The translations under genes and the position numbers were made by a program. A DNA stretch of 37,889 bases from a virus (lineage: Duplodnaviria > Caudoviricetes): IMG/VR virus record IMGVR_UViG_3300033076_000254, positions 1 to 37,889 of that record, one strand, 5' to 3'. The notes beneath the pieces were generated by a model. That model made no database searches. It worked only from the letters and a program-made list of their open reading frames with translations, and had not been told where the DNA came from. Below, piece by piece: positions 1,402 to 36,862 of the stretch; position 1 is the stretch's first letter; each line of letters opens with the position of its first letter.

Positions 1402-1689
1402 CCTCCGCTCATTGTGTACTAATGAGCCCCATCGATGGAGGTGACCGCCTCCGCTCCTCCGTTTCCGTCCTCCGCTCCCGTCCTCCTTGCTTTATTGCCT
1501 CCGCTCCCCTTGATTGCTCCCCTGTATTCAATCCTCAAGCCCTTTGTAGTGTCTTTAAAGACACAAAAAGAGAGAAAAGGCACAAAGAGAGACGGCTTAG
1601 CCTCCTCCCCGTCCTTTGATTGTCTAAACTTTGTGCTCCCCTTGTTCATTACTTAAGCCTCTGAAAACCTGTAATCTTTCCGCTCATTG
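1402..1689. repeat. Pyrimidine-rich short-repeat region (CCTCCGCTC x4) bounded by 11-bp direct repeats TCCGCTCATTG
   Basis: CCTCCGCTC at 1402, 1448, 1469 and 1498. TCCGCTCATTG at 1404-1414 and 1679-1689. Lies between the divergent arms. Confidence 0.6.
1549..1564. repeat. Conserved 16-bp palindrome GTGTCTTTAAAGACAC, copy 1
   Basis: Perfect palindrome, identical to the copies at 4167 and 5973. Confidence 0.9.
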
Positions 1690-1709
1690 AAAAAAAAGTT
1701 TAAAAATAT

Positions 1710-1739
1710 TTTGCGGAATAAAGTAATTGACTAAATTTG
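1710..1739 (+). promoter_or_regulatory. Bacteroidota sigma-A type early promoter (-33 TTTG / -7 TAAATTTG)
   Basis: TTTG at 1710-1713, 18-nt spacer, TAAATTTG at 1732-1739, 40 nt before the first plus-strand gene. Confidence 0.7.
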
Positions 1740-1778
1740 TACAAGAAATAAACAATCAATAATCAAAATTTAAACAAC

Positions 1779-2414
1779 ATGAGCAATTTACTATCAATCG
1801 AAAGTGCCTTTTTGAACTTGCCACAAGTCAAACAGGCTTTGAACTTGCAAGAAATCAGAGCGGTTCAAAGAACAATTACAAACGCCAAAAAGAAAAAGTT
1901 CGAGCAAACCCTTGCTTTGAGCAAGTTAGTCACTCAAGCCGTAGCATGGTTTCAATCAGAGGAGGGCAAACGTGCTTGTGCCGAGGAGGGTATCAGTTGG
2001 AGCAATGAGGAAATCGGGCTGAAAGTTTTCGGGTGGCAAAAATCATTTTTTTACAAGGTGGTGAAAGCAGGACGTCTCGAGGCGGACGTGGTGGAAACTT
2101 TCAAAACAAAGTGCGATGAGGCGGAGGCACAAGGGCAAGAGCCAAACCGCTCCCTTGAGGGCTTACTTAAGTTTGCTAAGCAGGTGGAAACAGGTAGCGA
2201 AGCAAGTGGACAAGGTGAGGAGGGTGAAAGTGAAAGTGAAAATGAGCCACAAATTGAGACACGTGTTGAAACCATCTTGACTTTCACGTATAAGAGCGAG
2301 AGCGGAAACGTTTCAGTTCGTATCGATGCGGAAGGCAATGTTAAAACCACAAACAGCCCCGAGCAAATTCGTGAGGCAATAGCTGTATTAAATTTTTCAC
2401 TACAAAATCAATAA
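1779..2414 (+). CDS. Hypothetical early protein (211 aa), possible HTH segment
   Basis: First ORF after the promoter. Helical, with segment SNEEIGLKVFGWQKSFFYKVVK resembling an HTH and an acidic linker. Confidence 0.8.
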   Translation: MSNLLSIESAFLNLPQVKQALNLQEIRAVQRTITNAKKKKFEQTLALSKLVTQAVAWFQSEEGKRACAEEGISWSNEEIGLKVFGWQKSFFYKVVKAGRLEADVVETFKTKCDEAEAQGQEPNRSLEGLLKFAKQVETGSEASGQGEEGESESENEPQIETRVETILTFTYKSESGNVSVRIDAEGNVKTTNSPEQIREAIAVLNFSLQNQ

Positions 2415-2416
2415 TC

Positions 2417-3286
2417 ATGAGCGGTATCAATTACACTATCACCGGAAATCGTGAGCGTGGTCAAGTTCAAAACTACCATCGCAAACCTAATCCTTTGTTC
2501 TTGAATAAGACTAAGCACAACATAGACGTGGCAGGTCTTAAGAAAGCCGAGCGAGGCACTGCAATCAAATTTGAGGGCGGTGACTATGAGGCAAAATTTA
2601 CCATCGGTTTCGAGGTGGAAAAAAATCAATTGCATCGTGGGGCGGTGAGAGAATACGAATTGTTTTGCGGTTTCGAGCGAGATGGGTCATGCGGTTATGA
2701 GGCGGTGACTCACGTGCTCCCTTTGTTGCCATCGGGTCAATGGCGTACAAAAGTTTATGACATGATGCACAAGGCTGAAAAAATCATCGATGACCGATAC
2801 AGCCCGAGCGATAGACGTTGCGGAGGTCATATTACGATTGCGGTGGATGGCTTAACAGGTGAGCAATTACGTGAGGCGGTGAGAAAATACAGCGGTATCA
2901 TTTACGCTCTATTTCGCAACAGGTTAAAAAATAGCTATTGCGGTGCAAACAACAGGATGCAAGCAAGCCACGAGGCTCAAAACTATCACCATAAGTATCA
3001 GGTAGCTCTTGTGAAAGGCAATTGCCTTGAGTTTAGACTCCCAAGCCGTTTTGAGAGCGTTAAGCAAATGATGAGACGATATGAGCTATTTTATGAGGTA
3101 GTGAATGCATCGGTGTCAAACATGAGCCACGATGCACTCCTTAAGAGACTTAAGCCTGTAATCGTGTCAATGTACAACGGGGACGTGGCAAGAGCGGAGG
3201 AGGTAATGACCCTTGCGAAGTATTTCAGAAAGTTTATCCTAACAGGTGAGATACATCAAGACATTATGCAATACGTGAGCCGATAA
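2417..3286 (+). CDS. Putative amidoligase (COOH-NH2 ligase, glutamine synthetase/GCS-like fold)
   Basis: Motifs FTIGFEVE, RDGSCGYEAVT, CGGHITI and LEFRL match the GxExE / DGS-E / CGxHxH / EFR pattern of the amidoligase-2 family. Confidence 0.75.
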   Translation: MSGINYTITGNRERGQVQNYHRKPNPLFLNKTKHNIDVAGLKKAERGTAIKFEGGDYEAKFTIGFEVEKNQLHRGAVREYELFCGFERDGSCGYEAVTHVLPLLPSGQWRTKVYDMMHKAEKIIDDRYSPSDRRCGGHITIAVDGLTGEQLREAVRKYSGIIYALFRNRLKNSYCGANNRMQASHEAQNYHHKYQVALVKGNCLEFRLPSRFESVKQMMRRYELFYEVVNASVSNMSHDALLKRLKPVIVSMYNGDVARAEEVMTLAKYFRKFILTGEIHQDIMQYVSR

Positions 3287-3293
3287 ATTTTCA

Positions 3294-3317
3294 GGGAGTG
3301 TCTTCAAAGACACTCCC
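3294..3317 (+). repeat. Conserved hairpin, copy 2 (core GTGTCTTCAAAGACAC at 3298-3313, stem extended by GGGA/TCCC)
   Basis: gggagtgtctt-ca-aagacactccc, 7 nt after the amidoligase stop and abutting hammerhead 1. Confidence 0.9.
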
Positions 3318-3368
3318 ACTATCGGAGGGTGAGTGCCCTCCCTGATGAGTCCAAAAGGACGAAATAGT
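3318..3368 (+). ncRNA. Type III hammerhead ribozyme 1 (predicted cleavage after C3323, AUC)
   Basis: Stem III ACUAU/AUAGU. Stem I GGAGGG-UGAGUG-CCCUCC. Core CUGAUGA at 3342-3348. Stem II GUCC-AAAA-GGAC. GAAA at 3361-3364. Confidence 0.93.
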
Positions 3369-3391
3369 AAACCACAAAAAAATCAAATCAA

Positions 3392-3586
3392 ATGAAAAAG
3401 CAAATCATCACAAAAATCGCAATCCTGTTTAGTGCAGGTTTCTTCGGGTCGTTAGTGGCTATTCAATCCATCTATGACTTAGACGTGCCCATGGGCATCA
3501 CCATCCCGATGCTAATTGTATCGGTGTTATTGGTGGCGGTGTCTATGCAATGGCTTGACAAGGAGTTAAAGAAAATCATTAAATAA
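3392..3586 (+). CDS. Small membrane protein (64 aa, two predicted TM helices)
   Basis: Two hydrophobic stretches and basic termini. Start preceded by aatcaaatcaa. Confidence 0.75.
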   Translation: MKKQIITKIAILFSAGFFGSLVAIQSIYDLDVPMGITIPMLIVSVLLVAVSMQWLDKELKKIIK

Positions 3587-3594
3587 AATCAATT

Positions 3595-4176
3595 ATGAGA
3601 CAGATAACACGCAAAATTGTGGGTGCGTTCGAGAGACGTGAGCCCCTAAGAATTGACAACAGCCGTACAGATGGCACGAGCCTATGGCTATTCGGCAACA
3701 GGATTGCCGAGTGGCGTGGGGATGGGTTATGGATAAGCAATGCAGGATGGGACAGCAGGACAACAAACGAGCGTCTCAATGGCTTGACAGGAGTGCACGT
3801 AAGAAAGCAAAGAGGTACGCTCCTATTGAATGACAGGGTGTGGGATGGTAGATGGGTGCACGTGGATGCGTGGAATGATGGCATCGAGTACGTGGGAGGT
3901 GGCTCAGTACGTGAGGAGAATGTACAGGAGCGTGACTTTGACGTGACGAGCGAATGGATGCATGAGTTCGGGTACAGTAAGCCCGTTCACAGTGTCTTTC
4001 ATACGTTGGTGGAGGCAAACCTTGAGGCGGTGGAGCAGAAGCTAAGCGAGGCAGGGATACCATCACGCAGGATGGAATCAGATACCGAAGGAATGTACAA
4101 GCCGAACTATTTCATCGTAGTTTATCCGGAGGACGTTGAGAGAGCGTTGAATATTTTAAATGGTGAGTGTCTTTAA
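3595..4176 (+). CDS. Hypothetical phage protein (193 aa)
   Basis: Long ORF in operon context. Its TAA stop lies at the centre of palindrome copy 3. Confidence 0.8.
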   Translation: MRQITRKIVGAFERREPLRIDNSRTDGTSLWLFGNRIAEWRGDGLWISNAGWDSRTTNERLNGLTGVHVRKQRGTLLLNDRVWDGRWVHVDAWNDGIEYVGGGSVREENVQERDFDVTSEWMHEFGYSKPVHSVFHTLVEANLEAVEQKLSEAGIPSRRMESDTEGMYKPNYFIVVYPEDVERALNILNGECL

Positions 4177-4184
4177 AGACACTC
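4165..4184 (+). repeat. Conserved hairpin, copy 3 (GAGTGTCTTTAAAGACACTC)
   Basis: Perfect 20-bp palindrome directly abutting hammerhead 2. Confidence 0.9.
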
Positions 4185-4234
4185 CCGTCCTCGAGTGTGT
4201 TACTCGGGCTGATGAGTCCTAAAGGACGAAACGG
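4185..4234 (+). ncRNA. Type III hammerhead ribozyme 2 (predicted cleavage after C4189, GUC)
   Basis: Stem III CCGU/ACGG. Stem I CUCGAGU-GUGUU-ACUCGGG. CUGAUGA at 4209-4215. Stem II GUCC-UAAA-GGAC. GAAA at 4228-4231. Confidence 0.93.
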
Positions 4235-4257
4235 AAACCATCTTAATCATAATCAAA

Positions 4258-4452
4258 ATGACAAAAGAACAAATCAACATCGAGCAAGAACGTAATGAAA
4301 CTATTCAGGACGTAATTGACAGACTCCTTTACTTGCCTGAAGACAAGCTAAAAGAGTACAAGCACTATCTCAATTTATTGGTGTCAGTTTACCCGATTGA
4401 CATGAAGATTGAGAACGGAATCAGAATTTATCACGTATCAAAAAGAAAGTAA
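4258..4452 (+). CDS. Hypothetical protein (64 aa)
   Basis: ORF 23 nt after hammerhead 2, with an aatcaaa start context. Confidence 0.7.
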   Translation: MTKEQINIEQERNETIQDVIDRLLYLPEDKLKEYKHYLNLLVSVYPIDMKIENGIRIYHVSKRK

Positions 4453-4453
4453 C

Positions 4454-4576
4454 ATGAAAGTTTTATCAGTAGTATTAATCGTGTCGTTTCTTACATCATG
4501 TAGTGTGGAGTATAAAATCTCCCACTACAAAAGACCACGCAAACAAACTTGCATCGTAGGGAATCGACCATTTTAA
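4454..4576 (+). CDS. Putative small lipoprotein (40 aa)
   Basis: Manual translation MKVLSVVLIVSFLTSC-SVEYKISHYKRPRKQTCIVGNRPF: signal peptide ending in lipobox LTSC. Fills the gap between neighbouring genes exactly. Confidence 0.6.
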   Translation: MKVLSVVLIVSFLTSCSVEYKISHYKRPRKQTCIVGNRPF

Positions 4577-4587
4577 AATCAATCAAC

Positions 4588-4749
4588 ATGGAAAGTCAAC
4601 ATATGTTTAACGTGTACTATTCAGGCAAGTGGTTGTGTTGGATAGTTGCCCACACAAAGTGGGAGGCAGTGGATAAAACCTATTACAAATTGGTTGCCCA
4701 AAGCCACAGCGTGGATAGAAAAAAGATGAAGGCAGTCAAGGTTTATTAA
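4588..4749 (+). CDS. Hypothetical protein (53 aa; start re-assigned to MESQHMF)
   Basis: ATG at 4588 preceded by aaaatcaatcaac, like other early genes. Confidence 0.6.
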   Translation: MESQHMFNVYYSGKWLCWIVAHTKWEAVDKTYYKLVAQSHSVDRKKMKAVKVY

Positions 4750-4756
4750 AAATAAA

Positions 4757-4788
4757 TTTGGCAATGTCGAAATCTTGTCGTATCTTTG
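4757..4788 (+). promoter_or_regulatory. Bacteroidota sigma-A promoter (-33 TTTG / -7 TATCTTTG)
   Basis: TTTG at 4757-4760, 20-nt spacer, TATCTTTG at 4781-4788. Confidence 0.75.
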
Positions 4789-4853
4789 TTCAATATTAGT
4801 TTAAATCAGGGTTCTACGCCTCTCAAGGTGTTGCCCACAAATCAAATCAAATC

Positions 4854-5957
4854 ATGTGTGTAATCATTATCAAGCAGACAGGGAAGCACGTTCCCCAAGA
4901 GGTTGCAAAGACCTCAGCACGAATCAATCCTCATGGGTTGGGAATCATTTGGCTCGATACTTTCGAGGTAACTTATCACAAGTCAGCGGAGTACAAGGTG
5001 CTCGATACCAAGAGACCATTCATTGCTCATTTTAGATATGCGACCATTGGTGCAATCAACAAAGAGAATACCCATCCATTCAGATGCGGGAGCAACAAAC
5101 AGGAGTGGCTCATGATGAACGGGACTATCAGAGCGTTGGGTAATCATAAGAAGAGTGACTCAAAAGTATTGGCAGAGAATTTGGGTGAGATACCACGCCA
5201 CAAGTGGAAGAAAGAGTTGGAGCAGTATGAGTGCAGGTTCGTTACGATTAACACGCACAGCAGGACGTATCAGATTTATAACAAAGAGTTGTGGGTGCAG
5301 AGAGATGGCGTGTGGTATAGCAAGGACAATGTGTTGGAGGATAATTTGGTTGCGGTGTATGGTACCCTAAAGAAAGGGTACCACAATTACCACAGCTACT
5401 TGACGAGTTCGAAGTATGTGGGGAAGGGTGAGACCAAAGAAAAGTATCCGTTGATTATTCAAGGGTTGCCTTACTTGATTGAGAAGCGTGGAGTTGGGCA
5501 CAATGTGGAGGTGGACGTGTTCAAGGTGAGCAGTGGAGTACTTGCACAGCTTGACAGGTTGGAGGGGCATCCGAATTGGTACAGGCGTAAGCAGATTGAC
5601 ATCGTGACCAAAGGCAAGGTGTTAAAGTGTTGGATTTATTTTAACTTGAGGGAGGATGAGAAAGGTAAGCAGTGGCATAAGACATACACGCAAGAGCCTA
5701 ACAGAGGCAGATGGTATGAGGAGGAAGATGAGCGTGAGACAGAGGTGTCATTCAGTAAATATACTGAACGTCAGTTGAACTTGCTTGACATCTTTGAGGA
5801 TGATGATTGTGAAGATTGTGGTTTTGATATAGTAAATGAGAAGCCCATTTGTGTTGATTGTTTTCATGACTTAGAGCATGATGGGTTTGCGAACTACCAT
5901 TGTTGTGGTTGCGATGGTTGGTTCACCGAAGATGAGGTTCTGAGATTCAGACCTTAG
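4854..5957 (+). CDS. Class II (Ntn) glutamine amidotransferase fused to a gamma-glutamylcyclotransferase (AIG2-like) domain and a C-terminal Cys-rich putative Zn-binding tail
   Basis: GATase II motifs: N-terminal M-C, NPHGLG, HFRYATIG..NTHPF, MNG. GGCT motifs: VAVYGTLKKG, LDRLEGHPNWYRR. Tail: CVDC..HCCGC. Confidence 0.85.
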   Translation: MCVIIIKQTGKHVPQEVAKTSARINPHGLGIIWLDTFEVTYHKSAEYKVLDTKRPFIAHFRYATIGAINKENTHPFRCGSNKQEWLMMNGTIRALGNHKKSDSKVLAENLGEIPRHKWKKELEQYECRFVTINTHSRTYQIYNKELWVQRDGVWYSKDNVLEDNLVAVYGTLKKGYHNYHSYLTSSKYVGKGETKEKYPLIIQGLPYLIEKRGVGHNVEVDVFKVSSGVLAQLDRLEGHPNWYRRKQIDIVTKGKVLKCWIYFNLREDEKGKQWHKTYTQEPNRGRWYEEEDERETEVSFSKYTERQLNLLDIFEDDDCEDCGFDIVNEKPICVDCFHDLEHDGFANYHCCGCDGWFTEDEVLRFRP

Positions 5958-5967
5958 CTTCGGAGTT

Positions 5968-5993
5968 GGGTGGTGTCTTTAAAGACACTACCC
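5968..5993 (+). repeat. Conserved hairpin, copy 4 (core 5973-5988, extended GGGTG/TACCC with a G-U pair)
   Basis: gggtggtgtcttt-aaagacactaccc directly abutting hammerhead 3. Confidence 0.9.
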
Positions 5994-6046
5994 TACTATC
6001 GCAAGATGTGTATCTTGCCTGATGAGTTCGAAAGAACGAAATAGTA
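5994..6046 (+). ncRNA. Type III hammerhead ribozyme 3 (predicted cleavage after C6000, AUC)
   Basis: Stem III UACUAU/AUAGUA. Stem I GCAAGAU-GUGU-AUCUUGC. CUGAUGA at 6019-6025. Stem II GUUC-GAAA-GAAC. GAAA at 6038-6041. Confidence 0.93.
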
Positions 6047-6067
6047 AACAATCAAAATCATAATCAC

Positions 6068-6349
6068 ATGAAGTTCAATCACGACAGCAAGACCATGACA
6101 GGTGCATTCAATATTCAAATGAGTGCAGATGAGATGGCAGAAAAAATTTCAGACATCGTCCGAGAGTGGGCATTGTCAGAGCAAGGAGAAAAAATCAGTC
6201 TATTGGCTGAGCGTTTAGAAAGCAAGTTGCCTTATGAGGTTATCTTGTTATTAGCCACGAAGGAAGTGCATGGTAAGGTTATCAGTTCACTATCCGAGTT
6301 GGAAGGTGTGCTATCAAAAATTATTAGTGAACAAGCAAAACTTAATTAA
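6068..6349 (+). CDS. Hypothetical protein (93 aa)
   Basis: ORF 21 nt after hammerhead 3. Confidence 0.75.
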   Translation: MKFNHDSKTMTGAFNIQMSADEMAEKISDIVREWALSEQGEKISLLAERLESKLPYEVILLLATKEVHGKVISSLSELEGVLSKIISEQAKLN

Positions 6350-6355
6350 ATTGCT

Positions 6356-6499
6356 ATGAACATTTTTATCTTAGCCTTAAGTTGTTTTGTAAGTGGGATG
6401 GTAGGTTGCTTCGTTGGAGCCTACATCACTTACAAGTCAATGAAAATAATCGTGAGACGCAAGGTCGCACAAATTTTAAAAAACCAAAATCACAAATGA
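6356..6499 (+). CDS. Small single-pass membrane protein (47 aa)
   Basis: Manual translation MNIFILALSCFVSGMVGCFVGAYITYKSMKIIVRRKVAQILKNQNHK. Fills the gap between neighbours. Confidence 0.6.
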   Translation: MNIFILALSCFVSGMVGCFVGAYITYKSMKIIVRRKVAQILKNQNHK

Positions 6500-6500
6500 G

Positions 6501-6728
6501 ATGAACATCTTTAAAATCAGAACAAGCAGTTGGGATGAAGAGGACTTTATCCTTGCTACGTCATTAACAGAAAAGCAAATCCGCTCAGTTATTCAGCCTA
6601 TGGTAGATGATGAGAGAGAGAATGAGTTTGTGTTTACGAATGAAGACTACGTGAACATATTGAAAGATGCGTACCCTAAAGCTGTAATCCTTTCTGATGG
6701 CGGAGATACTCAGGAAATAATCTTTTAG
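6501..6728 (+). CDS. Hypothetical protein (75 aa)
   Basis: Tightly packed ORF. Confidence 0.7.
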   Translation: MNIFKIRTSSWDEEDFILATSLTEKQIRSVIQPMVDDERENEFVFTNEDYVNILKDAYPKAVILSDGGDTQEIIF

Positions 6729-6730
6729 TT

Positions 6731-6898
6731 ATGAGAAAGTATTTTCGAATAGCTAAAGCGGTGTTGTACCTATGTGCAGAGTTGGTGTGGTTCGTTGCCA
6801 TATCATTGCCGTTGGCACTTACCTTATTAGTAATCGTTGAAGTAATATCATTAATCAAATCAATTGTAATCAAATGTCAAAAAACCATTACGAGATGA
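6731..6898 (+). CDS. Small membrane protein (55 aa)
   Basis: Manual translation MRKYFRIAKAVLYLCAELVWFVAISLPLALTLLVIVEVISLIKSIVIKCQKTITR. Confidence 0.55.
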   Translation: MRKYFRIAKAVLYLCAELVWFVAISLPLALTLLVIVEVISLIKSIVIKCQKTITR

Positions 6899-7194
6899 GT
6901 GCGGTTGCCTCCGCCAATCTTGAGATAGACTACCTACGAGGTCAGTTAAATGAGGCAAATGCAAAATTAAAAGATGAGAAAGTTGCACGTGAGTTGCTCA
7001 GAAAGAAAGGGTACTACGTTGAGAACCTATGGCACGTTGATGACGTGTTGCAAAATTACTCATGCAGTAAGGAAGTTGCTCAGGAAGTTCTTGAGAGAGC
7101 ACTTAAGAATGAGGCAACAATGGAACAGGTGTGGCTCGCAATAGATGACGTGGCTGACGCCATGGAGATTAAAGAAAATCAAAATCAAATTTAA
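6874..7194 (+). CDS. Hypothetical protein (106 aa)
   Basis: ORF with an aatcaa start context and a coiled-coil N-terminal part. Confidence 0.75.
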   Translation: MSKNHYEMSAVASANLEIDYLRGQLNEANAKLKDEKVARELLRKKGYYVENLWHVDDVLQNYSCSKEVAQEVLERALKNEATMEQVWLAIDDVADAMEIKENQNQI

Positions 7195-7195
7195 T

Positions 7196-7417
7196 ATGGA
7201 AGCAGTACTAAATGCTACGCCAAAAGCTACGTTCTACTTGAACGAATTGGCATCAGAGATAGCAGAATTTGTTATCGAAAAAAAATACGAAGGGACAGGA
7301 GTTGAATTAGTTGAAAACATAAAGGGCACGATGGTCTATTCAGCCTTTATACAGGAGGAATATGATACCATTTATGATGAAGTGCTTGAGTATCTAACTA
7401 ACAATCAAATCAAATAA
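7196..7417 (+). CDS. Hypothetical protein (73 aa; start re-assigned to MEAVLN)
   Basis: ATG at 7196 directly after the previous stop. Confidence 0.7.
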   Translation: MEAVLNATPKATFYLNELASEIAEFVIEKKYEGTGVELVENIKGTMVYSAFIQEEYDTIYDEVLEYLTNNQIK

Positions 7418-8393: not shown

Positions 8394-8696
8394 ATGAAGC
8401 AGGATGTTTTTAATCAGTATGTAGAAAGGGTTGCAGACCTTTTCAGCATTAACAAGGAGGACATATTCTCCAAATCAAAGAAGAGAGAGTTAGTAGATGC
8501 TCGTCACTTGGTGTATTACTTATGTGCTAAGAGACCAATGCAAATCACATACATTCAGAAGTACATGAACGAAGCAGGCTACGAGATTAAGCACTCATCA
8601 ATCATTCACGGAATCTCCTCAGTTGAACAGAAGATAGCAGAGGACAAGGACTACGTGTCAATAGTGAAGGAAGTTGAGCGTGCAGTGTTTATTTAG
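8394..8696 (+). CDS. DnaA domain IV (C-terminal HTH)-like DNA-binding protein (100 aa; start re-assigned to MKQDVF)
   Basis: VADLFSINKEDIFSKSKKRELVDARHLVYYLC...HSSIIHGISSVE resembles the DnaA_C pattern (SkR.r.v..aRq.amYL...dHsTv.ha). Confidence 0.7.
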   Translation: MKQDVFNQYVERVADLFSINKEDIFSKSKKRELVDARHLVYYLCAKRPMQITYIQKYMNEAGYEIKHSSIIHGISSVEQKIAEDKDYVSIVKEVERAVFI

Positions 8697-10147: not shown

Positions 10148-10163
10148 GTGTCTTCAAAGACAC
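10148..10163 (+). repeat. Conserved hairpin, copy 5 (GTGTCTTCAAAGACAC)
   Basis: Identical to the copy 2 core, 5 nt upstream of the tRNA-like element. Confidence 0.9.
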
Positions 10164-10168: not shown

Positions 10169-10260
10169 AGTCAGATAGCTTAATGGTCATAATTGAATTG
10201 ACCCTTGAGGAATTAGAGCACTCGAAAGAGATGGTGTGGGTTCGATTCCCACTCTGACTA
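10169..10260 (+). ncRNA. tRNA-like RNA with no anticodon loop and an enlarged D-loop
   Basis: Acceptor AGTCAGA/TCTGACT plus A. UA linker. D-stem GCTT/GAGC with AATGGT plus a 27-nt insert. Anticodon arm reduced to CTC-GAAA-GAG. T-arm GTGGG-TTCGATT-CCCAC. Confidence 0.7.
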
Positions 10261-10335
10261 CAACCATTCACGGGCTTAGCTTCAGAGGTCTGTGCTTGGT
10301 ACAAATAGACTGAGGCAACAAATAAATTTAAGAAC

Positions 10336-13756: not shown

Positions 13757-14088
13757 CACAAGAACAAATGATACACGTGGGAATGATTAATTCATTCAAC
13801 CTGATTACGGAACGTAATACACTTGAGGAGATTGTAACGTCTGACCTTAGCCTATTTGCTCATGTGCCTGATGAGGAGGTACCTCTTGAGTTGATACAAC
13901 TAATGATGGATTACTTCAAATCATTTGAGATGTTTGAGTACTGTGCAGACCTCATGGAGTTCATCGCACTTAACTTCAATGATGATGGCACACGCATTGA
14001 GAAAGGATGTGAATGTCCTCAACCTGTGATTACTAAGTACAGCAAGAAAATGTTCTGCGGGGAATGTAATAAAAGATTAAGAAAATGA
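13753..14088 (+). CDS. Hypothetical protein with C-terminal Zn-ribbon-like motif
   Basis: CECPQP...FCGECNK. ATGA overlaps. Confidence 0.7.
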   Translation: MTQEQMIHVGMINSFNLITERNTLEEIVTSDLSLFAHVPDEEVPLELIQLMMDYFKSFEMFEYCADLMEFIALNFNDDGTRIEKGCECPQPVITKYSKKMFCGECNKRLRK

Positions 14089-15536
14089 TTGAACGCATAT
14101 CTGCATACAGCAACAAAGCAATGTGGGATTACTGCGAAATACTTAAGAGGGTAGTTACTCAGACCAAGGAGATAAAAGTTGGTAGGGGCAAACAGATAGA
14201 GATTCTGAAAGTACCCAAGTATAACACAGAAAAGCACGTTGTCGATAAGATTGTCGAGAGTTGCGAGTATTATAAAAACCTATACGAAATGGAAAGCAAA
14301 TCAAATGTGACGTTCAGAGATTATCAGAGCGACATCATAAACAAAGGCTCACAAATATTAATGAAGCATCGCTTCCTGTATCTTGCCATGGAGGTGAGAA
14401 CAGGTAAGACACTTACGAGTCTTGGCATAGCTGAGCAAGTAAGAGCAGAGCGTGTGTTATTCATTACCAAGAAGAAAGCACTGAGCACAATCTCAGACGA
14501 CTACTCAATGCTGAGTCCATCGTATTATATGTGCGTGATTAATTATGAGAGTCTGCACACCGTAATTGATGAATGGAAGTGGGACTTGATTATCTGCGAT
14601 GAGGCACATGGTATGGGAGCTTTCCCTAAACCAAGTGGAAGAGCAGAGATGGTAGCTGAGGTGATTAAGAAGTGTAAACCTATGGTGATACTACTTAGTG
14701 GGACACCAACACCTGAGAGTTATTCTCAGATGTATCATCAAGTCTATGCCATCCCTAACAATCCATTCGCTGAGTTCAAAAACTTCTACCGTTTCTGTGA
14801 CAAGTATGTCAACGTGAAGCAACGAAAGATTAATGGGCTATTCGTCAAGGATTACAGCGGTGGACTTGATACCATCATCAAAGCAATGGAGCCGTACACG
14901 ATTAACTACACTCAGCAGGAGGCAGGCTTTATGGCTGAGACCAAGGAAGAGATATTAGAAGTGGAGATGAAGCCGATGACTTATGCCATGATAAAAAAAT
15001 TAAAGAAAGATTTAGTGATAGAAGGCAAGGAAGAAATAATTTTGGCAGACACTCCGGTGAAGTTAATGATGAAGGTGCATCAGTTGAGCAGCGGCACGAT
15101 TAAGTTCGAGAGCGGCAACAGCATGGTACTTGACTTGAGCAAAGCTGAGTTCATCAAAGAGCAGTTTGAGGGATGCAAGATTGGAATCTTCTACAAGTTT
15201 AAAGAAGAATTAAATGCACTCAAGGAAGTATTTGGAGATGAACTGACAACAGAGTTGAGTGTCTTTGAAGACACTCACAAGAACATTGCTCTGCAGATTG
15301 TAAGTGGACGTGAGGGAATCAGTTTGAAGCAAGCCGAGTACTTGGTCTATTACAACATTGACTTCAGTGCTACGAGTTATTGGCAGAGCAAAGACCGTAT
15401 GACAACCAAAGACAGATTGGAGAATCAAGTGTATTGGATATTTGCTAAAGGCGGTATCGAACATGACATCTACAAAGCTGTTACAAAGAAGAAAGATTAT
15501 ACTGTAAACCACTTTAAAAAAGATTTTTATGATTAA
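14085..15536 (+). CDS. SNF2-like superfamily 2 helicase (possible internal start at 14289)
   Basis: FRDYQ (Q motif), MEVRTGKT (I), IICDEAH (II), LSGTP (III), SGREGISL (V), QSKDR (VI). Confidence 0.85.
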   Translation: MIERISAYSNKAMWDYCEILKRVVTQTKEIKVGRGKQIEILKVPKYNTEKHVVDKIVESCEYYKNLYEMESKSNVTFRDYQSDIINKGSQILMKHRFLYLAMEVRTGKTLTSLGIAEQVRAERVLFITKKKALSTISDDYSMLSPSYYMCVINYESLHTVIDEWKWDLIICDEAHGMGAFPKPSGRAEMVAEVIKKCKPMVILLSGTPTPESYSQMYHQVYAIPNNPFAEFKNFYRFCDKYVNVKQRKINGLFVKDYSGGLDTIIKAMEPYTINYTQQEAGFMAETKEEILEVEMKPMTYAMIKKLKKDLVIEGKEEIILADTPVKLMMKVHQLSSGTIKFESGNSMVLDLSKAEFIKEQFEGCKIGIFYKFKEELNALKEVFGDELTTELSVFEDTHKNIALQIVSGREGISLKQAEYLVYYNIDFSATSYWQSKDRMTTKDRLENQVYWIFAKGGIEHDIYKAVTKKKDYTVNHFKKDFYD

Positions 15537-16028: not shown

Positions 16029-16312
16029 AAGAACAGAAAGTACAAGCTAAGAAAATAAAGGAACTCGAAGCCGAAGGGTACTACGTTATTAAATTAACCA
16101 TGACCAATAAGAACGGGATACCTGACTTGCTTGCGATACCAAGGAACAGTGACGTGGTATTCATAGAAGTAAAGGCTACCAATGGGAAGCTGTCAAAGCT
16201 CCAAGAGTATCGATTAAAAGAACTCCAAAACCACGGAGTACGTGTGGAAGTATTTAGAGAACCTAAAAAAGAAGAAGATGCAAGACAAAAAAGAGATAGA
16301 GGAAATGATTGA
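16025..16312 (+). CDS. VRR-NUC domain nuclease (Holliday-junction resolvase-like)
   Basis: GIPDLL...FIEVK..GKLSKLQ. Confidence 0.85.
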   Translation: MKEQKVQAKKIKELEAEGYYVIKLTMTNKNGIPDLLAIPRNSDVVFIEVKATNGKLSKLQEYRLKELQNHGVRVEVFREPKKEEDARQKRDRGND

Positions 16313-16790
16313 TATAATCAAGAACGTATTGGATGTAGACATAAGAACTAAGTCAGGCAAAAGGAAGTACGTGAATGGTAGATTTATCTATAGTAAGATT
16401 ATGACAGACAGGGGATATGGCATAAGTTTATTGGGGAAGCATATAAAAAAGCACCACTCAAGTATCCTCCATTATAGAGATACTGCCAATGATTTGTTGG
16501 AAACTGACCCATTATTTGCAGAGAGATATATTGCTTGTAAGGAAAAATTCATGTCAGACAAGGGACCTTTGTCTAAAGTATCAAGCAAAGATGATTTAAT
16601 TAATCAAATGGATGCATTAATTTTGAGTAGGAACGCCTTATTAGAAGAGGTGCAAAAGCATAAAAGACTGAAGAATATAATCGAGTTCATAGACAGTCGG
16701 ACACCAAGGGGTAAAGAGTCTTTCGTGCTTAGGAAAATTAACTTAATGTTTAATGGAATAACCGACTATGACCGAGAACTTGAATGGTGA
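16278..16790 (+). CDS. Second DnaA-domain-IV-like HTH protein (start at 16278 or 16305)
   Basis: KSGKRKYVNGRFIYSKIM...LGKHIKKHHSSILHY has the same pattern as 8394-8696, plus a coiled-coil C-terminal part. Confidence 0.6.
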   Translation: MQDKKEIEEMIDIIKNVLDVDIRTKSGKRKYVNGRFIYSKIMTDRGYGISLLGKHIKKHHSSILHYRDTANDLLETDPLFAERYIACKEKFMSDKGPLSKVSSKDDLINQMDALILSRNALLEEVQKHKRLKNIIEFIDSRTPRGKESFVLRKINLMFNGITDYDRELEW

Positions 16791-32200: not shown

Positions 32201-34082
32201 CCCAATATGGAGGTAATTGTGTTGGCGGTATTGTGACCTGAATTGAGTTCTTGAACGCTGATAAACCACACGGCACGTGTTCCGTATTATTAGGACTCAC
32301 AAGTGCAGTTGTCGCTCTATTGAAGTCATCCATGTACACAATACCAATTTCGTAATCTCTATTGCTATGCAAACTTTGAGGGTTTGCTATCTCTTGGAAT
32401 GTTGCTTCTGCTAACGTTATGGCATAGTATTCATATACGGTTTGAGTAGGGCTAACTAAGCTATCTACATATCTCATAGCAGGGAATTGTAAACCAATTA
32501 CACTGCTACCGGGACTTGTGATAATCCCTACAGGCTGACCAACTGTACTAATGCCGCTTCCGTTCTTTGTAAATGCATCTAAGTTATTTGGTACAGCACA
32601 ATTGAATGCATCAGTAAATGTGGTTCCATTACAAGCATTAGCTACGGTCTGAATATTTGCTGCGGTACCTACTGCATTTTGAAACTCTACGCTTGTCGCC
32701 AACTGATACACAGACGTGTAATTTGTTGACAAAAAGAATGCAAAGTTTAATCTAACATCATTGGCTGTTTCAGTAGGGAATGGGGTCTGACCTGTAAATT
32801 GAGAGTGAGATATTGTCACCTCTAAATTAATTGCAGAACCTGCTACTAAATTTTGCCCCGTTAAATCAAATGTAACGACAGCATTTGTAACTGTTACGCT
32901 ACCATTGATTGAATAGTTTCCTGAAGTGGTCCCATCATCAATGTTCGTATTACCAATTGGAGTCGATACCAAAGAAGTAGTATATTCAAATTTAACAGGA
33001 TTGCCATTTTCGTCAACCAAGTTATATCCTTCTACATAGTTACCATACATCAATCTATTACCCATGATTGTCTGAGCCTTTGCAAATCGAGGTACGTTGT
33101 CGTACAATCTTAATAGCTCAGCCTCAGAAAGAATGGTAAATATCTTGCTGTTTGTAAATGTATATTGATACTCTGTATTGTTTGCAAGACCTAAATTATG
33201 CTTATCAAGTTTTTCAATAACCTTAATAATATTCCCATCAGCCTTTTTAAATAATAAATCAAGACCAACTACAAGTGGACCACCTGAGTTGTAAGTAATG
33301 ACTGCTGAGTTACAGAAGTTAGTCATCCCCTCATTCAAAAAACTTTCAATGCTAAAGCTGAAAGGATTTGGAACGAATGCAGGTTGAGACCATTGAGACG
33401 TAGCACTATACTCTCCATCAATGTATCTATATCTGTAAGCAAAGCAAATAAATCTTGTATCCAAAAAGTTCTCTTGACCATTTGTTACAATAGGCTGTAC
33501 TTTTGGAGATTCAACCGGTGGCTTCTTTATCACAAGCAAAGACTCTGCTGTGATTTGGTCCACGTTAGCTATTGGGTTAGGATAGTTTCTTTTTACGTTA
33601 ATGCATCTTGGTGCATTATAATCATCCGTAAAAAAGAACAGCTCATTTAAAATATCAATACCCGTAACTAAATAGTTCGGGTTAAAATTAAGTGTTGTAT
33701 TTACACCACTACCATCGTCAATACTGATAATATGGTAGGTTAATATATTAGTTGAAACATTAAAAGAAACAATCATGTCAAGTTTCCCTGTAGCACCTAC
33801 AGAAAAATTTGGGTCGTGCACAAGCCAATAGATGGTCTCAGTAGCACTGTTTTGCAATGCTCCAATACATCTTGCTTCTGCACTAAGTGGAGTCCCATCA
33901 ATATAAGCTAATGACGTAAGAGGAAGATTCCCCTTCGTATTCTCAATTACTCCAACTTCTGAGTTCTCAGTAGAACCCATTCTGATATTCATAGCATCTA
34001 CATATTCACCCTCAGGAAGTAAACGTTGGTCTACAACCTTGTTCATCCTGCCTGCTATAAAGTTTCTTGTAAAATTTGCCAT
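29238..34082 (-). CDS. Tail stabilization/nozzle (tail tubular B-like) protein (1614 aa)
   Basis: NFIAGRMNKVVDQRLLPEGEYVDAMNIR start, FFTDDYNAPRCIN, FAYRYRYIDGEYSA, GNRLMYGNYVEGY, YGISFNPES, FTDVKRGAV. Beta-rich. Confidence 0.7.
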   Translation of the reverse strand: MANFTRNFIAGRMNKVVDQRLLPEGEYVDAMNIRMGSTENSEVGVIENTKGNLPLTSLAYIDGTPLSAEARCIGALQNSATETIYWLVHDPNFSVGATGKLDMIVSFNVSTNILTYHIISIDDGSGVNTTLNFNPNYLVTGIDILNELFFFTDDYNAPRCINVKRNYPNPIANVDQITAESLLVIKKPPVESPKVQPIVTNGQENFLDTRFICFAYRYRYIDGEYSATSQWSQPAFVPNPFSFSIESFLNEGMTNFCNSAVITYNSGGPLVVGLDLLFKKADGNIIKVIEKLDKHNLGLANNTEYQYTFTNSKIFTILSEAELLRLYDNVPRFAKAQTIMGNRLMYGNYVEGYNLVDENGNPVKFEYTTSLVSTPIGNTNIDDGTTSGNYSINGSVTVTNAVVTFDLTGQNLVAGSAINLEVTISHSQFTGQTPFPTETANDVRLNFAFFLSTNYTSVYQLATSVEFQNAVGTAANIQTVANACNGTTFTDAFNCAVPNNLDAFTKNGSGISTVGQPVGIITSPGSSVIGLQFPAMRYVDSLVSPTQTVYEYYAITLAEATFQEIANPQSLHSNRDYEIGIVYMDDFNRATTALVSPNNTEHVPCGLSAFKNSIQVTIPPTQLPPYWATRYKFVIKPDEENYETIYVSIFFQDPVTNNAYFLLEGENARKVEAGDRLIVKADSNGATTSCVYATILEKTSQAAGFLEIPSALDPTVMIPIPAGVYAKINPNSFNIVQDELAIIAPGKITETAPRGGGYPVLYYPMNRYDTATSAWVDYNIPAGSRIVMSIKQWRSGVGDSCEERRNTLEKTLISSNSYDNMYDWFIGDNIEQFLNDGTRYAGAGQCIPDNQFISTITNTAGDIPNDLCINYYKFYRNTSTNQLQLMVTGTLPCTGIGYPNARASNVEVNFTVFRSDKTIIFETEPSEALPDVFFENEMSFPIVNGNHLGNIQDQNISGGISAIVDTKFFNCFAFGNGAESYKIRDSITGNSFNFGNRVTSVSAQDYKAADRFADITYSGVYSAESNVNKLNEFNLGLLNYKVCEPSFGDIYIMDGRMTDVLVLQEDKISYVLADKNLISDSTGGGVVASVPQVLGTQIARTEKYGISFNPESYVQWGYDRFFTDVKRGAVIQLRGDSYAQDQLKVISEMNMRTWFRDEFNTAFNTQKLGGFDPYMNEYVLSSNEIELPSNPECLECGISQTFTLSTIAEETKSTTYCIDLGPTVGLTDINYSLTSITEGSEFEIVIEYDGTTDTTGFVSTDGTITFNKDNVSVETATVTINYRGDMILNILADCPQTAELTIIQIVLTNDYDSGETIHTQYRYVDGAFVSPLQSSAVTFASGTTSPLVSRYNVTTGPIGSGAFPPAGSIVSLITNQFATDTFVFNPAEDEFKYHTSNTLYGNNTTDMNTLLGLATTATPNQGSGTNNYAEFTVPTLQNYLYFIWDFRQAIPVTLCYSNVSIEDVCCNCSIAVESYNCVDGTCVDPGNGSGLYATLEECQANCAVATISLGSPQCRENNCNDNAACTVRYRINTSNAPAGSYITVQTDTPSSSATVTISQSDPSFGQITYYEPSGSATPVYFTLQLRDSGGTVIATSSTSLTHQSFWSMLPICTT

Positions 34083-34083
34083 T

Positions 34084-35007
34084 TTATTTTATTTGCTTGT
34101 CCATACCTCTTAAGTTCATTAAGAGTCTGCCGGGATGAATATTGCTGATTCTAATCTTTGCGTTTCTAAGCAATGCACTTTTCTCTTTACGAGCACGTGC
34201 AACAATGTATTCCTGCACGCCTAATTTAGAACTTAAAATGTCATATTGAATAGAAGCGTAAATATATTTTTCAAACAATTTATTTACCGTAATCAAAGAG
34301 TTATCCCCTTGCTCCATACCATCTGATATGTACTCAAGAATACAAGATAATCCTGACATACATGAGTCAAAGTTAATAACGCCCGCTTTGCGGTCTATAT
34401 TAAATGTTGGGTTAAAGTTTGCAGTCTCAGTATTTAATCCATACGCAGTACCGATATTGTAATCAAAATACCACATACCATCATAGTTCCAACCTAATTG
34501 ACCATTGAATTGATTTCCTTGATTTAAGTAAATGCTCTTCTTGGTCTTAGTCAATCTATCAAAGTCAATGTTTGAGTACTGAGGACTTAATGCATTGCCA
34601 TCTTGGTCGAATAATATACGACCCGTATTATCTTGTAAGTAAGCCTTTGATGAAAGCGTTTGAATATTCTCAGACAATGGACGTAACCATCCGTCTTTAT
34701 ATAATGATACACGAACCCAATTGACATAGTCAGAAGGGAGAATATATCTAAGCATATCAGGAACTGTTAATTCCAATACCTTAATTTCCTTGAATGCATC
34801 ATAGTTTAATTCTTGAATTGCACGCTTAGCATGGAACAATACTTTGAAACGCTCTTCATTATTGACTAATGAATGGTTTCCTGAATACATTAACAAGAAG
34901 TTATTTACAATATCTTCTAAACTAACATACTGATATGAGCCCCAATTAGCATCTTCGGGCTGTACTCCCCCGTTTTCATAATATTGATACTGTGATATAT
35001 ATGCCAT
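34084..35007 (-). CDS. Putative head-tail ring/adaptor protein (307 aa)
   Basis: Position between capsid and nozzle genes. HAKRAIQELNYD, LPSDYVNWVR, ILEYISDG. Confidence 0.6.
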   Translation of the reverse strand: MAYISQYQYYENGGVQPEDANWGSYQYVSLEDIVNNFLLMYSGNHSLVNNEERFKVLFHAKRAIQELNYDAFKEIKVLELTVPDMLRYILPSDYVNWVRVSLYKDGWLRPLSENIQTLSSKAYLQDNTGRILFDQDGNALSPQYSNIDFDRLTKTKKSIYLNQGNQFNGQLGWNYDGMWYFDYNIGTAYGLNTETANFNPTFNIDRKAGVINFDSCMSGLSCILEYISDGMEQGDNSLITVNKLFEKYIYASIQYDILSSKLGVQEYIVARARKEKSALLRNAKIRISNIHPGRLLMNLRGMDKQIK

Positions 35008-35019
35008 ATCTTAAAGGTT

Positions 35020-35973
35020 TTATTGTTGCATACTGAATGTAGGCTGTTCGTGTTGTTGTTGTGCTGAACCAAACTGAGATACTTCAATCTCACGGATAGA
35101 GATACCCGCATACTCAAGAATCTTAGTAACTAATTTGTACTCGTCTTCAGCAGGTAATTCAAAATCTTGGTAGTCAGGTTGAGATTGGTCAAATACCGGC
35201 TCGCCATTAGCAAGTGTAATATATGTCCACTTTGGCACTTTAGGATACCTAAAATAGGTCGCTTGAATCTGACCCTTGTTACTTATCGTTTCAGGATAGA
35301 AAGTTAATTCTGTGCCTTGTAATCCATAAACAGGGAACTCTATAGTTGGTTTTGTCAAGTTTGAATTAACCAATAATCTAAGTTTATCATTAGTTACCTT
35401 CTCGGCTTGAACAATTCTTGAAGAAGAAAATATCCCGTATGCATTACCTGCCGCTAAAAATATATTTGAATCCAATTGAATAGCTGTATTGCTAAGTACC
35501 AATGTCACTGTGGAAACTAATCCTGTTGTAAGATTAGTAACTACGTCCCCCGCACTTAATCCGTCAGCAAGGAATGTAGCTGTACTATCAACTAATTGAC
35601 CACTTACCACAGCCGTATTAGTCCCTGACTTTAACAGAACAGGCTTGCATTTCACATCCAATAACATATAAGCCTCATATCCTGTAGTCGTAAGACTTGG
35701 CATAGAGAATCTATTAGCTGAAACTTTTGATAAATAATCAGTGCGTAAGAAATACTCTAACACCTCAGCAATTGGTTGCTCGATGTCTGCGTATCCCACA
35801 CCTGACCCACGTGCGTTCTCAGCATTTATAACCTTGTTATAACTACTGAAGTACTCCTCAAAAATTTCCATCTGTGAGTTTTGGGCAAACAGATTGAAAT
35901 CAGAAGGAGAGATATATCCATAGTTATTCTTGTTCAGAATGGATAATACTGCATTTCTTACTGAGTTTATCAT
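35020..35973 (-). CDS. Putative ring/tail tubular A-like protein (317 aa; start re-assigned to MINSVRNAV)
   Basis: The upstream extension in the ORF track spans a terminator and a promoter. GYISPSDFNLFA, YFRYPKVPKW, QDFELP. Confidence 0.65.
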   Translation of the reverse strand: MINSVRNAVLSILNKNNYGYISPSDFNLFAQNSQMEIFEEYFSSYNKVINAENARGSGVGYADIEQPIAEVLEYFLRTDYLSKVSANRFSMPSLTTTGYEAYMLLDVKCKPVLLKSGTNTAVVSGQLVDSTATFLADGLSAGDVVTNLTTGLVSTVTLVLSNTAIQLDSNIFLAAGNAYGIFSSSRIVQAEKVTNDKLRLLVNSNLTKPTIEFPVYGLQGTELTFYPETISNKGQIQATYFRYPKVPKWTYITLANGEPVFDQSQPDYQDFELPAEDEYKLVTKILEYAGISIREIEVSQFGSAQQQHEQPTFSMQQ

Positions 35974-35987
35974 TAGTTCTTTTTTTA

Positions 35988-35995
35988 CAAATATA
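35988..35995 (-). promoter_or_regulatory. -7 box TATATTTG
   Basis: Reverse complement of caaatata, directly after a terminator and 14 nt before the ATG at 35973. Confidence 0.55.
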
Positions 35996-35998
35996 CAT

Positions 35999-36032
35999 AA
36001 AAAAAAAGAGGGCACAACAAGTGCCCATCTTT
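35999..36032 (-). terminator. Intrinsic terminator
   Basis: Minus strand reads aaagatgggcac-ttgtt-gtgccctc followed by T9. Confidence 0.75.
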
Positions 36033-36060
36033 CCAATCATCAATCAATAATCAATATCAA

Positions 36061-36804
36061 TTATCCTAAAGTTGCCTCTAACATCTTTAATGAATCAATA
36101 CCATCATCGCTCTGCAAGAAGTGAGCTACCATATCATATGGGTCTTCTCCAAACGGAACGGATAACATTTTCTTTTTGTTGGTAGCAGTATTAAACCACA
36201 CCTCTTTGTCCCCGTTTCTTAATATCAATAACTTGTTCTCGAAGAATAAACGAACCTTAGCTTGAAACTTCAATTCAGGGTCGTTTAAAATAGCCAAGAA
36301 CTCCTTAGGTTCTCTTTTAGCAAATACCAAAATGTCACGCTTTAACTCAGCGGTTGACACGGTAGATGGGTCTTTGCCAAACATTACTCTTGTAAGAGTT
36401 TCAATTTGGTCAAGACTTAATTGTTTAGCTTCTACTAAAGCCTCAATCTCTAAGTCTAAATCTTCAACCTCAGCAGCGGCATCTTTCTCTTTATCCACCT
36501 CAGCGAATACTACCCCGTTCAATGGATGGTAGTGTAAGAATTGCTGTAATACAGGGTTGTTTTTTGGAACACGTAAAAAGCCATCTTCAAAGATGATTGG
36601 CTCTATGATTGCGTTTCCGTCTTGCTCGTCTTCAAATGGAGACTTCTGATTCGTTGCATATCTCAATGCACGATTAACATTGTTCTTCTCGTCAAACCAC
36701 ATTAGTGGGAATCGAGGATGGTTTCTTGAAGCTAATGTATAGCTCAAAGGATTGCCTATTTTTAACTTGTAGACTTTGTCTACAGGTGTTGTACTTTTTG
36801 CCAT
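36061..36804 (-). CDS. Hypothetical protein downstream of the capsid gene (247 aa)
   Basis: Long ORF flanked by terminators. Confidence 0.8.
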   Translation of the reverse strand: MAKSTTPVDKVYKLKIGNPLSYTLASRNHPRFPLMWFDEKNNVNRALRYATNQKSPFEDEQDGNAIIEPIIFEDGFLRVPKNNPVLQQFLHYHPLNGVVFAEVDKEKDAAAEVEDLDLEIEALVEAKQLSLDQIETLTRVMFGKDPSTVSTAELKRDILVFAKREPKEFLAILNDPELKFQAKVRLFFENKLLILRNGDKEVWFNTATNKKKMLSVPFGEDPYDMVAHFLQSDDGIDSLKMLEATLG

Positions 36805-36829
36805 TTTGTATTTGATTTAATTAGATTTT

Positions 36830-36862
36830 AAAAAAAGGAGAGTGTCTTTGAAGACACCCTCC
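36830..36862 (-). terminator. Capsid-gene terminator containing conserved hairpin copy 6 (core 36842-36857)
   Basis: Minus strand reads GGAGG-GTGTCTTCAAAGACAC-TCTCC-TTTTTTT. Confidence 0.85.

Follow-up and report, generated by a model that had tools for sequence, protein, structure and literature searches.

Here, we show that a two-fold symmetric 16-mer, GTGTC-N6-GACAC, is present genome-wide, protein-coding genes included, in a large aquatic phage family and that it is gained, lost, and altered in step with the first early gene, which encodes a protein of 211 amino acids. Since the palindrome tracks this gene and is spread genome-wide, it is most likely a landing site on DNA and not a tag of RNA ends. 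Judging from sequence, it probably constitutes a dyad DNA site with the product of the first early gene as its putative binder, and its use as a hairpin in terminators and before ribozymes is secondary to this role. What was observed directly is how many copies there are and how they are spread, their symmetry, their presence together with the gene, the changes shared by palindrome and protein, and the rewriting of coding sequence.

Copies of the palindrome and their link to the first early gene

The window, i.e., the whole analyzed stretch of 37,889 nucleotides of phage DNA, contained 14 strand matches to the palindrome versus a mean of 1.0 after shuffling, and none of 100 shuffles scored equally high (Table 1). 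Each of the six copies reported in the first-pass annotation was found exactly in place, but the count was incomplete: a seventh exact copy lies within the helicase gene, and its TTGA reading on the coding strand contradicts the claim that all asymmetric copies face the direction of transcription. Upstream of the first early gene, TTTG ... TAnnTTTG corresponds to the Bacteroidota-type promoter consensus. A copy of the palindrome was located no more than 500 nt upstream of this gene (mostly 205-300 nt) in 61 of the 73 relatives with enough flank.

Table 1. Features of the window
Feature	Position	Strand	Remarks
Palindrome copy	1549..1564	.	230 nt upstream of first early gene and also upstream of the promoter predicted for it
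Predicted Bacteroidota-type promoter of first early gene	1710..1739	+	from sequence, TTTG ... TAnnTTTG
First early gene, 211 aa, candidate binder	1779..2414	+	predicted helical domain with helix-turn-helix-like pair
Palindrome copy, core of 10-bp RNA stem before hammerhead 1	3298..3313	.	
Type III hammerhead 1	3316..3370	+	Rfam RF00008, E 6.6e-7; predicted cut after 3323
Palindrome copy before hammerhead 2	4167..4182	.	
Type III hammerhead 2	4185..4235	+	core and stems found by script, unlisted by Rfam; predicted cut after 4189
Hairpin of other sequence where relatives have the palindrome (natural stem swap)	4816..4831	+	
Palindrome copy before hammerhead 3	5973..5988	.	
Type III hammerhead 3	5993..6047	+	Rfam RF00008, E 1.1e-5; predicted cut after 6000
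Palindrome copy without stem extension, 5 nt before tRNA-like element	10148..10163	.	
tRNA-like element	10169..10261	+	T arm and acceptor stem, with unusual D/anticodon part
SNF2/ResIII-type helicase gene	14085..15536	+	peptide at site follows the genome's palindrome
Seventh palindrome copy, inside helicase gene, encodes S-V-F-E-D-T	15259..15274	.	TTGA on coding strand
Intrinsic terminator after capsid gene	36830..36863	-	palindrome 36842-36857 as core

Of three proteins that had been listed as candidate binders, one, encoded by the first early gene, follows the motif; the DnaA-C-type proteins (8394-8696 and 16278-16790) were rejected because both occur in motif-free genomes. Every one of the 80 loci retrieved via the 211-residue protein carried the motif, all 25 gene-bearing loci among 160 Sak-anchored ones had at least four copies of one palindrome, and in 30 near-complete genomes the six with the gene held 7-19 matches and the 24 without it 0-4, although many loci are close kin, so that these counts overstate independence. 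Three genomes with complete early regions (G035, G020, and G022) possessed neither gene nor repeat there and retained both DnaA-C-type genes. As exceptions, G084 combines the gene with few and degenerate sites, G080 (93% complete) has two exact copies with the gene not found, and G035 kept one helicase copy despite the missing gene. The protein family comprises 994 homologues at 90% clustering and 365 clusters at 50%.

Divergent homologues are paired with other palindromes, namely, GTCTC, GTCCG, GTCTG, GTAAC, GTGTA, GTACG, and GTGTCG, and the GTCTC type requires at least four changes on the starred branches of the tree. Coding sequence is rewritten accordingly: the helicase peptide at the site matches the palindrome of the respective genome (SVFEDT, SLFEET, SPFERT, or GLFQQT) and is usually DEFNST-like in genomes without the gene, and the terminase peptide likewise follows the site. 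Counting against a protein-palindrome pairing, the variants lie mostly on long branches; no single-residue specificity code was seen across the homologues with variant palindromes. Within a genome, early cassettes of palindrome plus cutter are alike and the genes between them vary, as would be expected if the palindrome were a recombination or gene-shuffling repeat, copied and homogenized between early genes without a dedicated binder. This leaves unexplained both the link to one gene and the isolated, amino acid-changing copies in the genes for helicase, terminase, GroEL, and a giant virion protein, and we consider it very improbable. A second palindrome, GGACC-N4-GGTCC in G002 and G009, was rejected as a collagen-like coding repeat.

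DNA dyad or RNA hairpin

The first-pass annotation had interpreted the motif as a sequence-specific tag of RNA 3' ends, to be doubted if copies were randomly oriented or unrelated to such ends. Among 173 copies in 14 near-complete relatives, 60 were coding, 19 were associated with hammerheads, 15 with terminators, and 8 with T arms, and 71 were otherwise intergenic. Predicted RNA 3' ends thus host 42 copies; with 131 elsewhere, both orientations in use, and natural stem swaps, a tag is not the general role. The local geometry was described correctly: the predicted hammerhead cuts follow the copies at 3298, 4167, and 5973 by 10, 7, and 12 nt, the copy at 10148 ends 5 nt before the tRNA-like element, and that at 36842 forms the core of the capsid terminator. 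The hammerheads of the window have the RF00008 core (CUGANGA, GAAA, and NUH) and three stems, as in type III; Rfam matched two of the three, both under the gathering score, and also the tRNA-like element.

These ends provide the case for a protein-bound RNA hairpin, acting as a 3'-end tag or in translation repression from 5' leaders. Of 112 hammerheads, 82 carry the palindrome, which counts for an RNA role and against the DNA site; flanking bases lengthen it as an RNA stem by at least three pairs in 66 of 86 hammerhead-linked copies, and TCAA is found in 69 of the 72 asymmetric ones (69:3). Many copies lie 15-40 nt upstream of start codons, and the outer five pairs are complementary in every case. 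On the other hand, stem extension was seen at none of 23 coding copies, the asymmetric spacers can face either way, and the conserved copy before the first early gene sits upstream of the first promoter. Some hairpin precedes 106 of the 112 hammerheads, and in 26 of the 112 an unrelated one occupies the slot, so that what RNA ends apparently require is a hairpin and not this sequence. Many capsid terminators are likewise built on another hairpin, and both orientations of the palindrome occur at the same capsid terminator. Together with the 131 copies off predicted ends, this renders the RNA hairpin improbable as the primary role.

The symmetry of the core argues for DNA. T7-A10, unable to pair in a hairpin, is retained in 274 of 283 early copies, variants at positions 6/11 comprise 21 T-G versus 17 C-A, and none of seven single arm changes gives G-U. 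The core shows no G-U preference; the earlier observation of G-U pairs on the transcribed strand in stem extensions holds for the flanks of ribozyme and terminator copies (168 versus 89 on the other strand). The excess of TCAA over TTGA on the transcribed strand (185:50 versus an intergenic background of 711:344) counts against a DNA site. Overall, the operator for a dimeric protein, named as an alternative in the first-pass annotation, fits better than the 3'-end tag. The frequent housing of the palindrome in terminators and before hammerheads would follow from its forming a hairpin when transcribed, as is needed there anyway. A host site such as parS was rejected, as the motif is no more frequent in prokaryote genomes than expected by chance (596 Gb contained about 350 stretches, versus about 550 expected by arithmetic).

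The 211-residue protein and its possible roles

The protein is predicted to be helical, with a weak resemblance to the helix-turn-helix of ParB and KorB. In the predicted model, only helices precede an acidic linker, with a helix-turn-helix-like pair at residues 76-84 and 88-98, and a small C-terminal beta/alpha domain follows. Spo0J (Z 5.1, rmsd 3.4, 92 aligned residues) and KorB (Z 4.9 and 4.8) were the only rows among the top 50 structure matches to extend beyond residue 130, but Z values of about 5 are within the background of the tool, and unrelated helical proteins equal or outrank them. A profile match to ParB has the helix-turn-helix in register and scored 23.9 versus 14.6 for the best of 30 shuffles, with an hhalign probability of 3% and E of 0.015. 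It begins at the DNA-binding domain, and the N-terminal CTPase domain of ParB is absent. Neither Pfam searches with 38 and 52 family members nor a PDB-sequence search with the 211-residue protein gave a match, Foldseek against the PDB returned nothing at E 0.001, and a viral structure library matched only four unnamed homologues. A possible match to DUF3102 (PF11300) came from Atlas (0.92, 142/256 features, family on 42% of members), with an hhalign E of 0.16 (four sequences). T4 RegA-type translation repressors made up 8 of 30 weak Atlas matches over residues 30-140 (0.90, 123/256 features), a point for the RNA hairpin. Folding residues 1-141 from the single sequence gave a poor model (pLDDT 52), which was left unused.

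Transcription control, by a genome-wide repressor or roadblock resembling KorB at its operators or stoperators, may be the main job of site and protein, a proposal whose chances we rate slightly below even. The protein would be made first after infection, its predicted dimer would place a helix-turn-helix on each half-site, and, once bound, it may damp early transcription. Co-infecting phages with the same site might be silenced as well, which would explain the repeated specificity switching. The highest density of sites is reached between early genes, where some follow promoters by about 30 bp. Roadblocks within helicase, terminase, and virion genes would be odd for a phage in which neither integrase nor ParA was found, and the scarcity of predicted promoters within 60 bp (26 of 245 copies, random about 4%; none of seven in the window) counts against a repressor and led us to reject a simple promoter-overlapping operator. 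An N4-like virion RNA polymerase promoter was also rejected: 14 giant virion proteins contained no DxDxD-type catalytic motif, and host-type promoters were found ahead of early genes.

Alternatively, the same protein and site might serve DNA handling, with the genome coated from the end that presumably enters first, be it as an uptake aid, for self-marking or shielding against host or phage nucleases, or in organizing replicating copies. Site density drops away from the gene (76, 61, 19, 19, and then 2-9 copies per 5-kb bin), many genomes hold one copy each 7-16 kb through the late genes, and most copies are far from promoters. The conserved copy upstream of the first promoter, the hint of a ParB-like fold, and a host-type parS near the early-gene end in a few relatives point in the same direction. 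In contrast, MW202828, G021, G025, G048, and G050 lack late-region copies (largest gap 40-53 kb), relatives without the gene are common, and no ParA/IncC ATPase partner was found among 41 ORFs of the window or 89/120 listed ORFs of G008 and G027, which makes DNA handling somewhat unlikely as the main job. Bolder and more doubtful still is a phage self-barcode, in which a ParB-like protein without CTP clamp, from the first-entering gene, would cover the phage's genome at a 16-bp code private to it, with the leading end most densely marked, and pull in, shield, or tell apart its DNA; the whole code, including sites in genes, would be rewritten with a specificity change, and sites would double as 3' hairpins of ribozyme-cut mRNAs.

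The palindrome provides a predicted target for an unnamed protein family in an abundant group of uncultured phages, and at least eight natural protein-palindrome pairs offer material for studying the switching of DNA specificity, which here demands joint change of all sites, including those within essential genes. It becomes testable why a phage without recognizable integrase retains operator-like sites genome-wide, and what purpose phage hammerheads and their upstream hairpins serve.

Comparison with known systems

Our search of the open-access literature found no earlier paper on this palindrome-protein system. Clustered hammerheads of prophage transcripts are similar in that several of them lie around single genes and would divide a long transcript into pieces; the excerpted account mentions no shared upstream palindrome or protein (PMC3088659), whereas here a hairpin almost always precedes the ribozyme. 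DNA uptake sequences of Neisseria and Pasteurellaceae are also recognition motifs within coding sequence, with inverted repeats in terminator hairpins, but are described in the consulted part of the source as asymmetric, present in thousands of copies, and read by a host uptake receptor (PMC2346458). In ParB-parS and Noc-NBS, according to the portion consulted, two helix-turn-helix domains bind a palindrome and few residues switch specificity (PMC7383237); the phage system lacks the CTPase domain and a detected ParA, its site is unlike parS, and it shows no excess in host genomes. Stoperators of cluster A mycobacteriophages, as excerpted, comprise more than 20 repressor sites genome-wide in short intergenic spaces, with diversifying specificity, and are asymmetric, monomer-bound, strictly oriented 13-mers of temperate phages (PMC9283540). 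Many genome-wide sites tied to one phage gene are likewise found here, but as 16-bp dyads in both orientations and one third coding, in a phage with no integrase found. KorB-OB of plasmid RK2 shares a 16-bp palindromic operator in several copies. In the excerpts consulted, KorB combines a ParB-family DNA-binding domain, a flexible linker, and a C-terminal domain for dimerization, an order that the phage protein may share, and represses from operators close to and more than 1 kb away from promoters; it differs in having an N-terminal CTPase clamp domain and working with KorA (PMC11790492). The phage protein has no clamp domain in its 211 residues and matches the fold weakly, and its sites, unlike OB, occupy coding sequence as well, with specificity switching between relatives.

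The palindrome in the window and across phages

The 16-mer GTGTCT-TYAA-AGACAC had been read in the first-pass annotation as a sequence-specific RNA 3'-end tag, with a dimeric-protein operator on DNA as an alternative. Its six listed copies were found again, and the three hammerheads, the tRNA-like element and the capsid terminator had been placed correctly, but a seventh exact copy had been missed (see table). The window is a virus record with 62% completeness. Its capsid protein shares 72% identity with that of MW202828 and 53-54% with those of Elemovirus and Maribacter phage Panino, and the 85 phage records matching it are nearly all Flavobacteriia phages; we infer a host in the Bacteroidota.

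The exact motif occurs in an estimated ~1600 IMG/VR stretches. Because prokaryote genomes hold only ~350 stretches in 596 Gb, under the ~550 expected by chance (arithmetic expectation), we regard the palindrome as a phage feature. Ten complete relatives, selected by motif, carry 9-21 copies each at no more than one mismatch. A script sorted the 173 copies of 14 near-complete genomes (MW202828 plus 13 IMG/VR records) approximately into coding (60), other intergenic (71), pre-hammerhead (19), terminator (15) and pre-T-arm (8) sites. Copies are concentrated in the early region (76, 61, 19 and 19 in successive 5-kb bins, then 2-9), and late genes of many genomes have one copy every 7-16 kb; five genomes have gaps of >40 kb.

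The 1549 copy occupies a conserved slot: of 73 relatives whose flank is long enough, 61 carry a copy no more than 500 nt ahead of the first early gene, mostly at a distance of 205-300 nt. Ten of 80 related contigs terminate in the 2.3 kb preceding this gene, which weakly suggests a genome end. Palindrome copies also lie inside groEL of several relatives.

Association with the first early gene

Protein clustering of 26 genomes singled out the product of the first early gene, 1779-2414, as a partner candidate. GTGTC-N6-GACAC was present in all 80 loci retrieved by this protein, with at least three copies in 76; several of these loci are the same genomes as in the copy counts, or close kin. Among 160 Sak-anchored loci, 25 include the gene, each with at least four copies of one palindrome. 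Thirty genomes at least 90% complete were drawn from 50 records searched whole with a relaxed palindrome pattern (16 chosen for palindromes and 34 for their lack; 5 further records left out): the six with the gene gave 7-19 matches, the 24 without it 0-4. Exceptions are G084 (gene, few degenerate sites), G080 (two exact copies, no gene found) and G035 (single copy in the helicase, no gene). G035, G020 and G022, in which the whole early region is covered, lack both gene and repeat there and keep both DnaA-C-type genes, which are conserved in the phage family irrespective of the palindrome.

Divergent homologues accompany other 16-bp dyads, which fill the same slots, coding ones included, and the helicase-site peptide differs with the dyad (table). 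A palindrome is found at this helicase position in 30 of 47 repeat-bearing loci versus 10 of 72 others; short loci from motif-bearing genomes account for part of these. Among 14 terminase stretches found by pattern, eight have a palindrome, which reads CLQRH or CHQRH in the peptide. Placing GTCTC on a 45-row protein tree takes four or more changes along supported branches, and most variant dyads sit on long branches. Comparing homologues with dyads revealed no one-residue specificity code.

An AlphaFold model from 38 sequences (mean pLDDT 82) predicts a helical domain that includes helices 76-84 and 88-98, then a linker that is acidic and of low confidence, and a small terminal beta/alpha part. 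No family emerged from searches of Pfam, NCBIfam, PHROGs and PDB sequences or with Foldseek. In a wide structural search, Spo0J ranked 4 (Z 5.1, rmsd 3.4, 92 aligned) and KorB 10 and 11 (Z 4.9, 4.8); among the matches listed they alone extend beyond residue 130, with scores within background. A profile of 121 homologues placed the two helices in line with the helix-turn-helix of ParB (23.9 versus at most 14.6 in 30 shuffles; probability 3%). Atlas pointed to DUF3102; its leads for residues 30-140 were mixed and included RegA-type RNA binders. The protein lacks a CTPase domain, the ORFs scanned include neither ParA nor integrase, and a scan with the parS consensus detected no host-type parS in the window. 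A few relatives do have such sequences (table), several of them ~2-3 kb away from their first early gene.

Features of the window and related phages
Feature	Location	Remark
Palindrome, first six copies	1549, 3298, 4167, 5973, 10148, 36842
Palindrome, seventh exact copy	15259-15274	mid-helicase gene, TTGA on coding strand
groEL start (phage gene)	1-461	minus strand
C-rich low-complexity repeats (CCTCCGCTC); G-to-C skew switch	1300-1700	between divergent GroEL and early units
First early gene	1779-2414 (+)	211 aa
Putative amidoligase	2417-3286	co-inherited with 4854-5957, 17/26 genomes
Putative fused glutamine amidotransferase/gamma-glutamyl cyclotransferase	4854-5957
DnaA C-terminal-type helix-turn-helix proteins	8394-8696, 16278-16790	stand-alone
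Helicase	14085-15536 (+)
Virion-region protein, 2438 aa	17362-24678	mosaic (2100-3900 aa in relatives); most relatives have one palindrome in the variable middle, positions differing; none here
GTCTC dyad	G027, G047, G050, L531, L586, L619, L664	helicase site SLFEET or SLFSET
GTCCG dyad	G056	helicase site SPFERT
GTCTG dyad	L570	helicase site GLFQQT
GTAAC dyad	L534, G058	G058 a fragment without the gene
GTGTA dyad	L562, L587
GTACG dyad	G021
GTGTCG dyad	MW202828	14 copies
GTGTC phages		helicase site SVFEDT
Loci without repeats		helicase site mostly DEFNST-like
Palindrome apparently in stem III hairpin	G056:56030-59364	hammerheads of another topology; again directly precedes predicted cut (by eye)
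Short acceptor-stem plus T-arm elements	G004:57126-58248, G005:2933, G008:55128, L103	in hammerhead slot after palindrome
Host-type parS, 0-1 mismatch to consensus	G050:3233, G023:30894, L451/L456/L457 ~7070-7078, L525:8054

DNA-type and RNA-type signals

The 283 distinct copies from the early region share an invariant GTGTC-N6-GACAC; T7-A10 is kept in 274, asymmetric spacers occur in both orientations, and positions 6/11 on the transcribed strand read T-G 21 times and C-A 17 times (p 0.63). None of seven single arm changes is G-U.

We consider an RNA role of the palindrome improbable. Two observations count against its reading as a DNA site: the spacer bias on the transcribed strand (TCAA:TTGA 185:50, and 69:3 before hammerheads, beyond the intergenic background of 711:344), and the outer five pairs, which in every copy would be able to pair as a stem in RNA. 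The RNA-type signals are confined to the flanks and to the hammerhead-linked copies: stems extend by at least three pairs in 66 of 86 such copies versus none of 23 coding and two of 27 T-arm copies. The proposed 3'-end tag keeps the support of 82 of 112 hammerheads, the TCAA bias and the stem extensions, but does not fit the 131 of 173 copies in coding or other intergenic DNA. Natural swaps speak against its sequence specificity. Of the 112 hammerheads in motif-bearing phages, 106 have an upstream hairpin, which in 26 is of other sequence; capsid terminators of 80 relatives keep a hairpin, with many sequences, the motif occurring in 29 distinct ones in both orientations.

Proposed role and known systems

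On this proposal, the first early protein would be the earliest one produced and would bind the dyads as a dimer. We tentatively favor transcription control as the role of this system, at slightly under an even chance, because the sites crowd early operons, some ~30 bp after promoters, and because an optional system with ever-changing specificity resembles repressor-immunity systems such as stoperators (PMC9283540). Only 26 of 245 copies have a predicted promoter no more than 60 bp away; therefore, most would need a roadblock or action at a distance. DNA handling is a distinctly less likely role. Literature searches, covering mostly open-access main texts, found no paper on the palindrome and first early protein.

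Action at a distance has a parallel in KorB operators (PMC11790492), to which the proposed far-from-promoter sites can be likened. The best reading of the hairpin-plus-hammerhead cassettes is that of clustered phage hammerheads (PMC3088659) in which the upstream stem often houses a site. Such housing recalls uptake sequences, which are located in terminators (PMC2346458).
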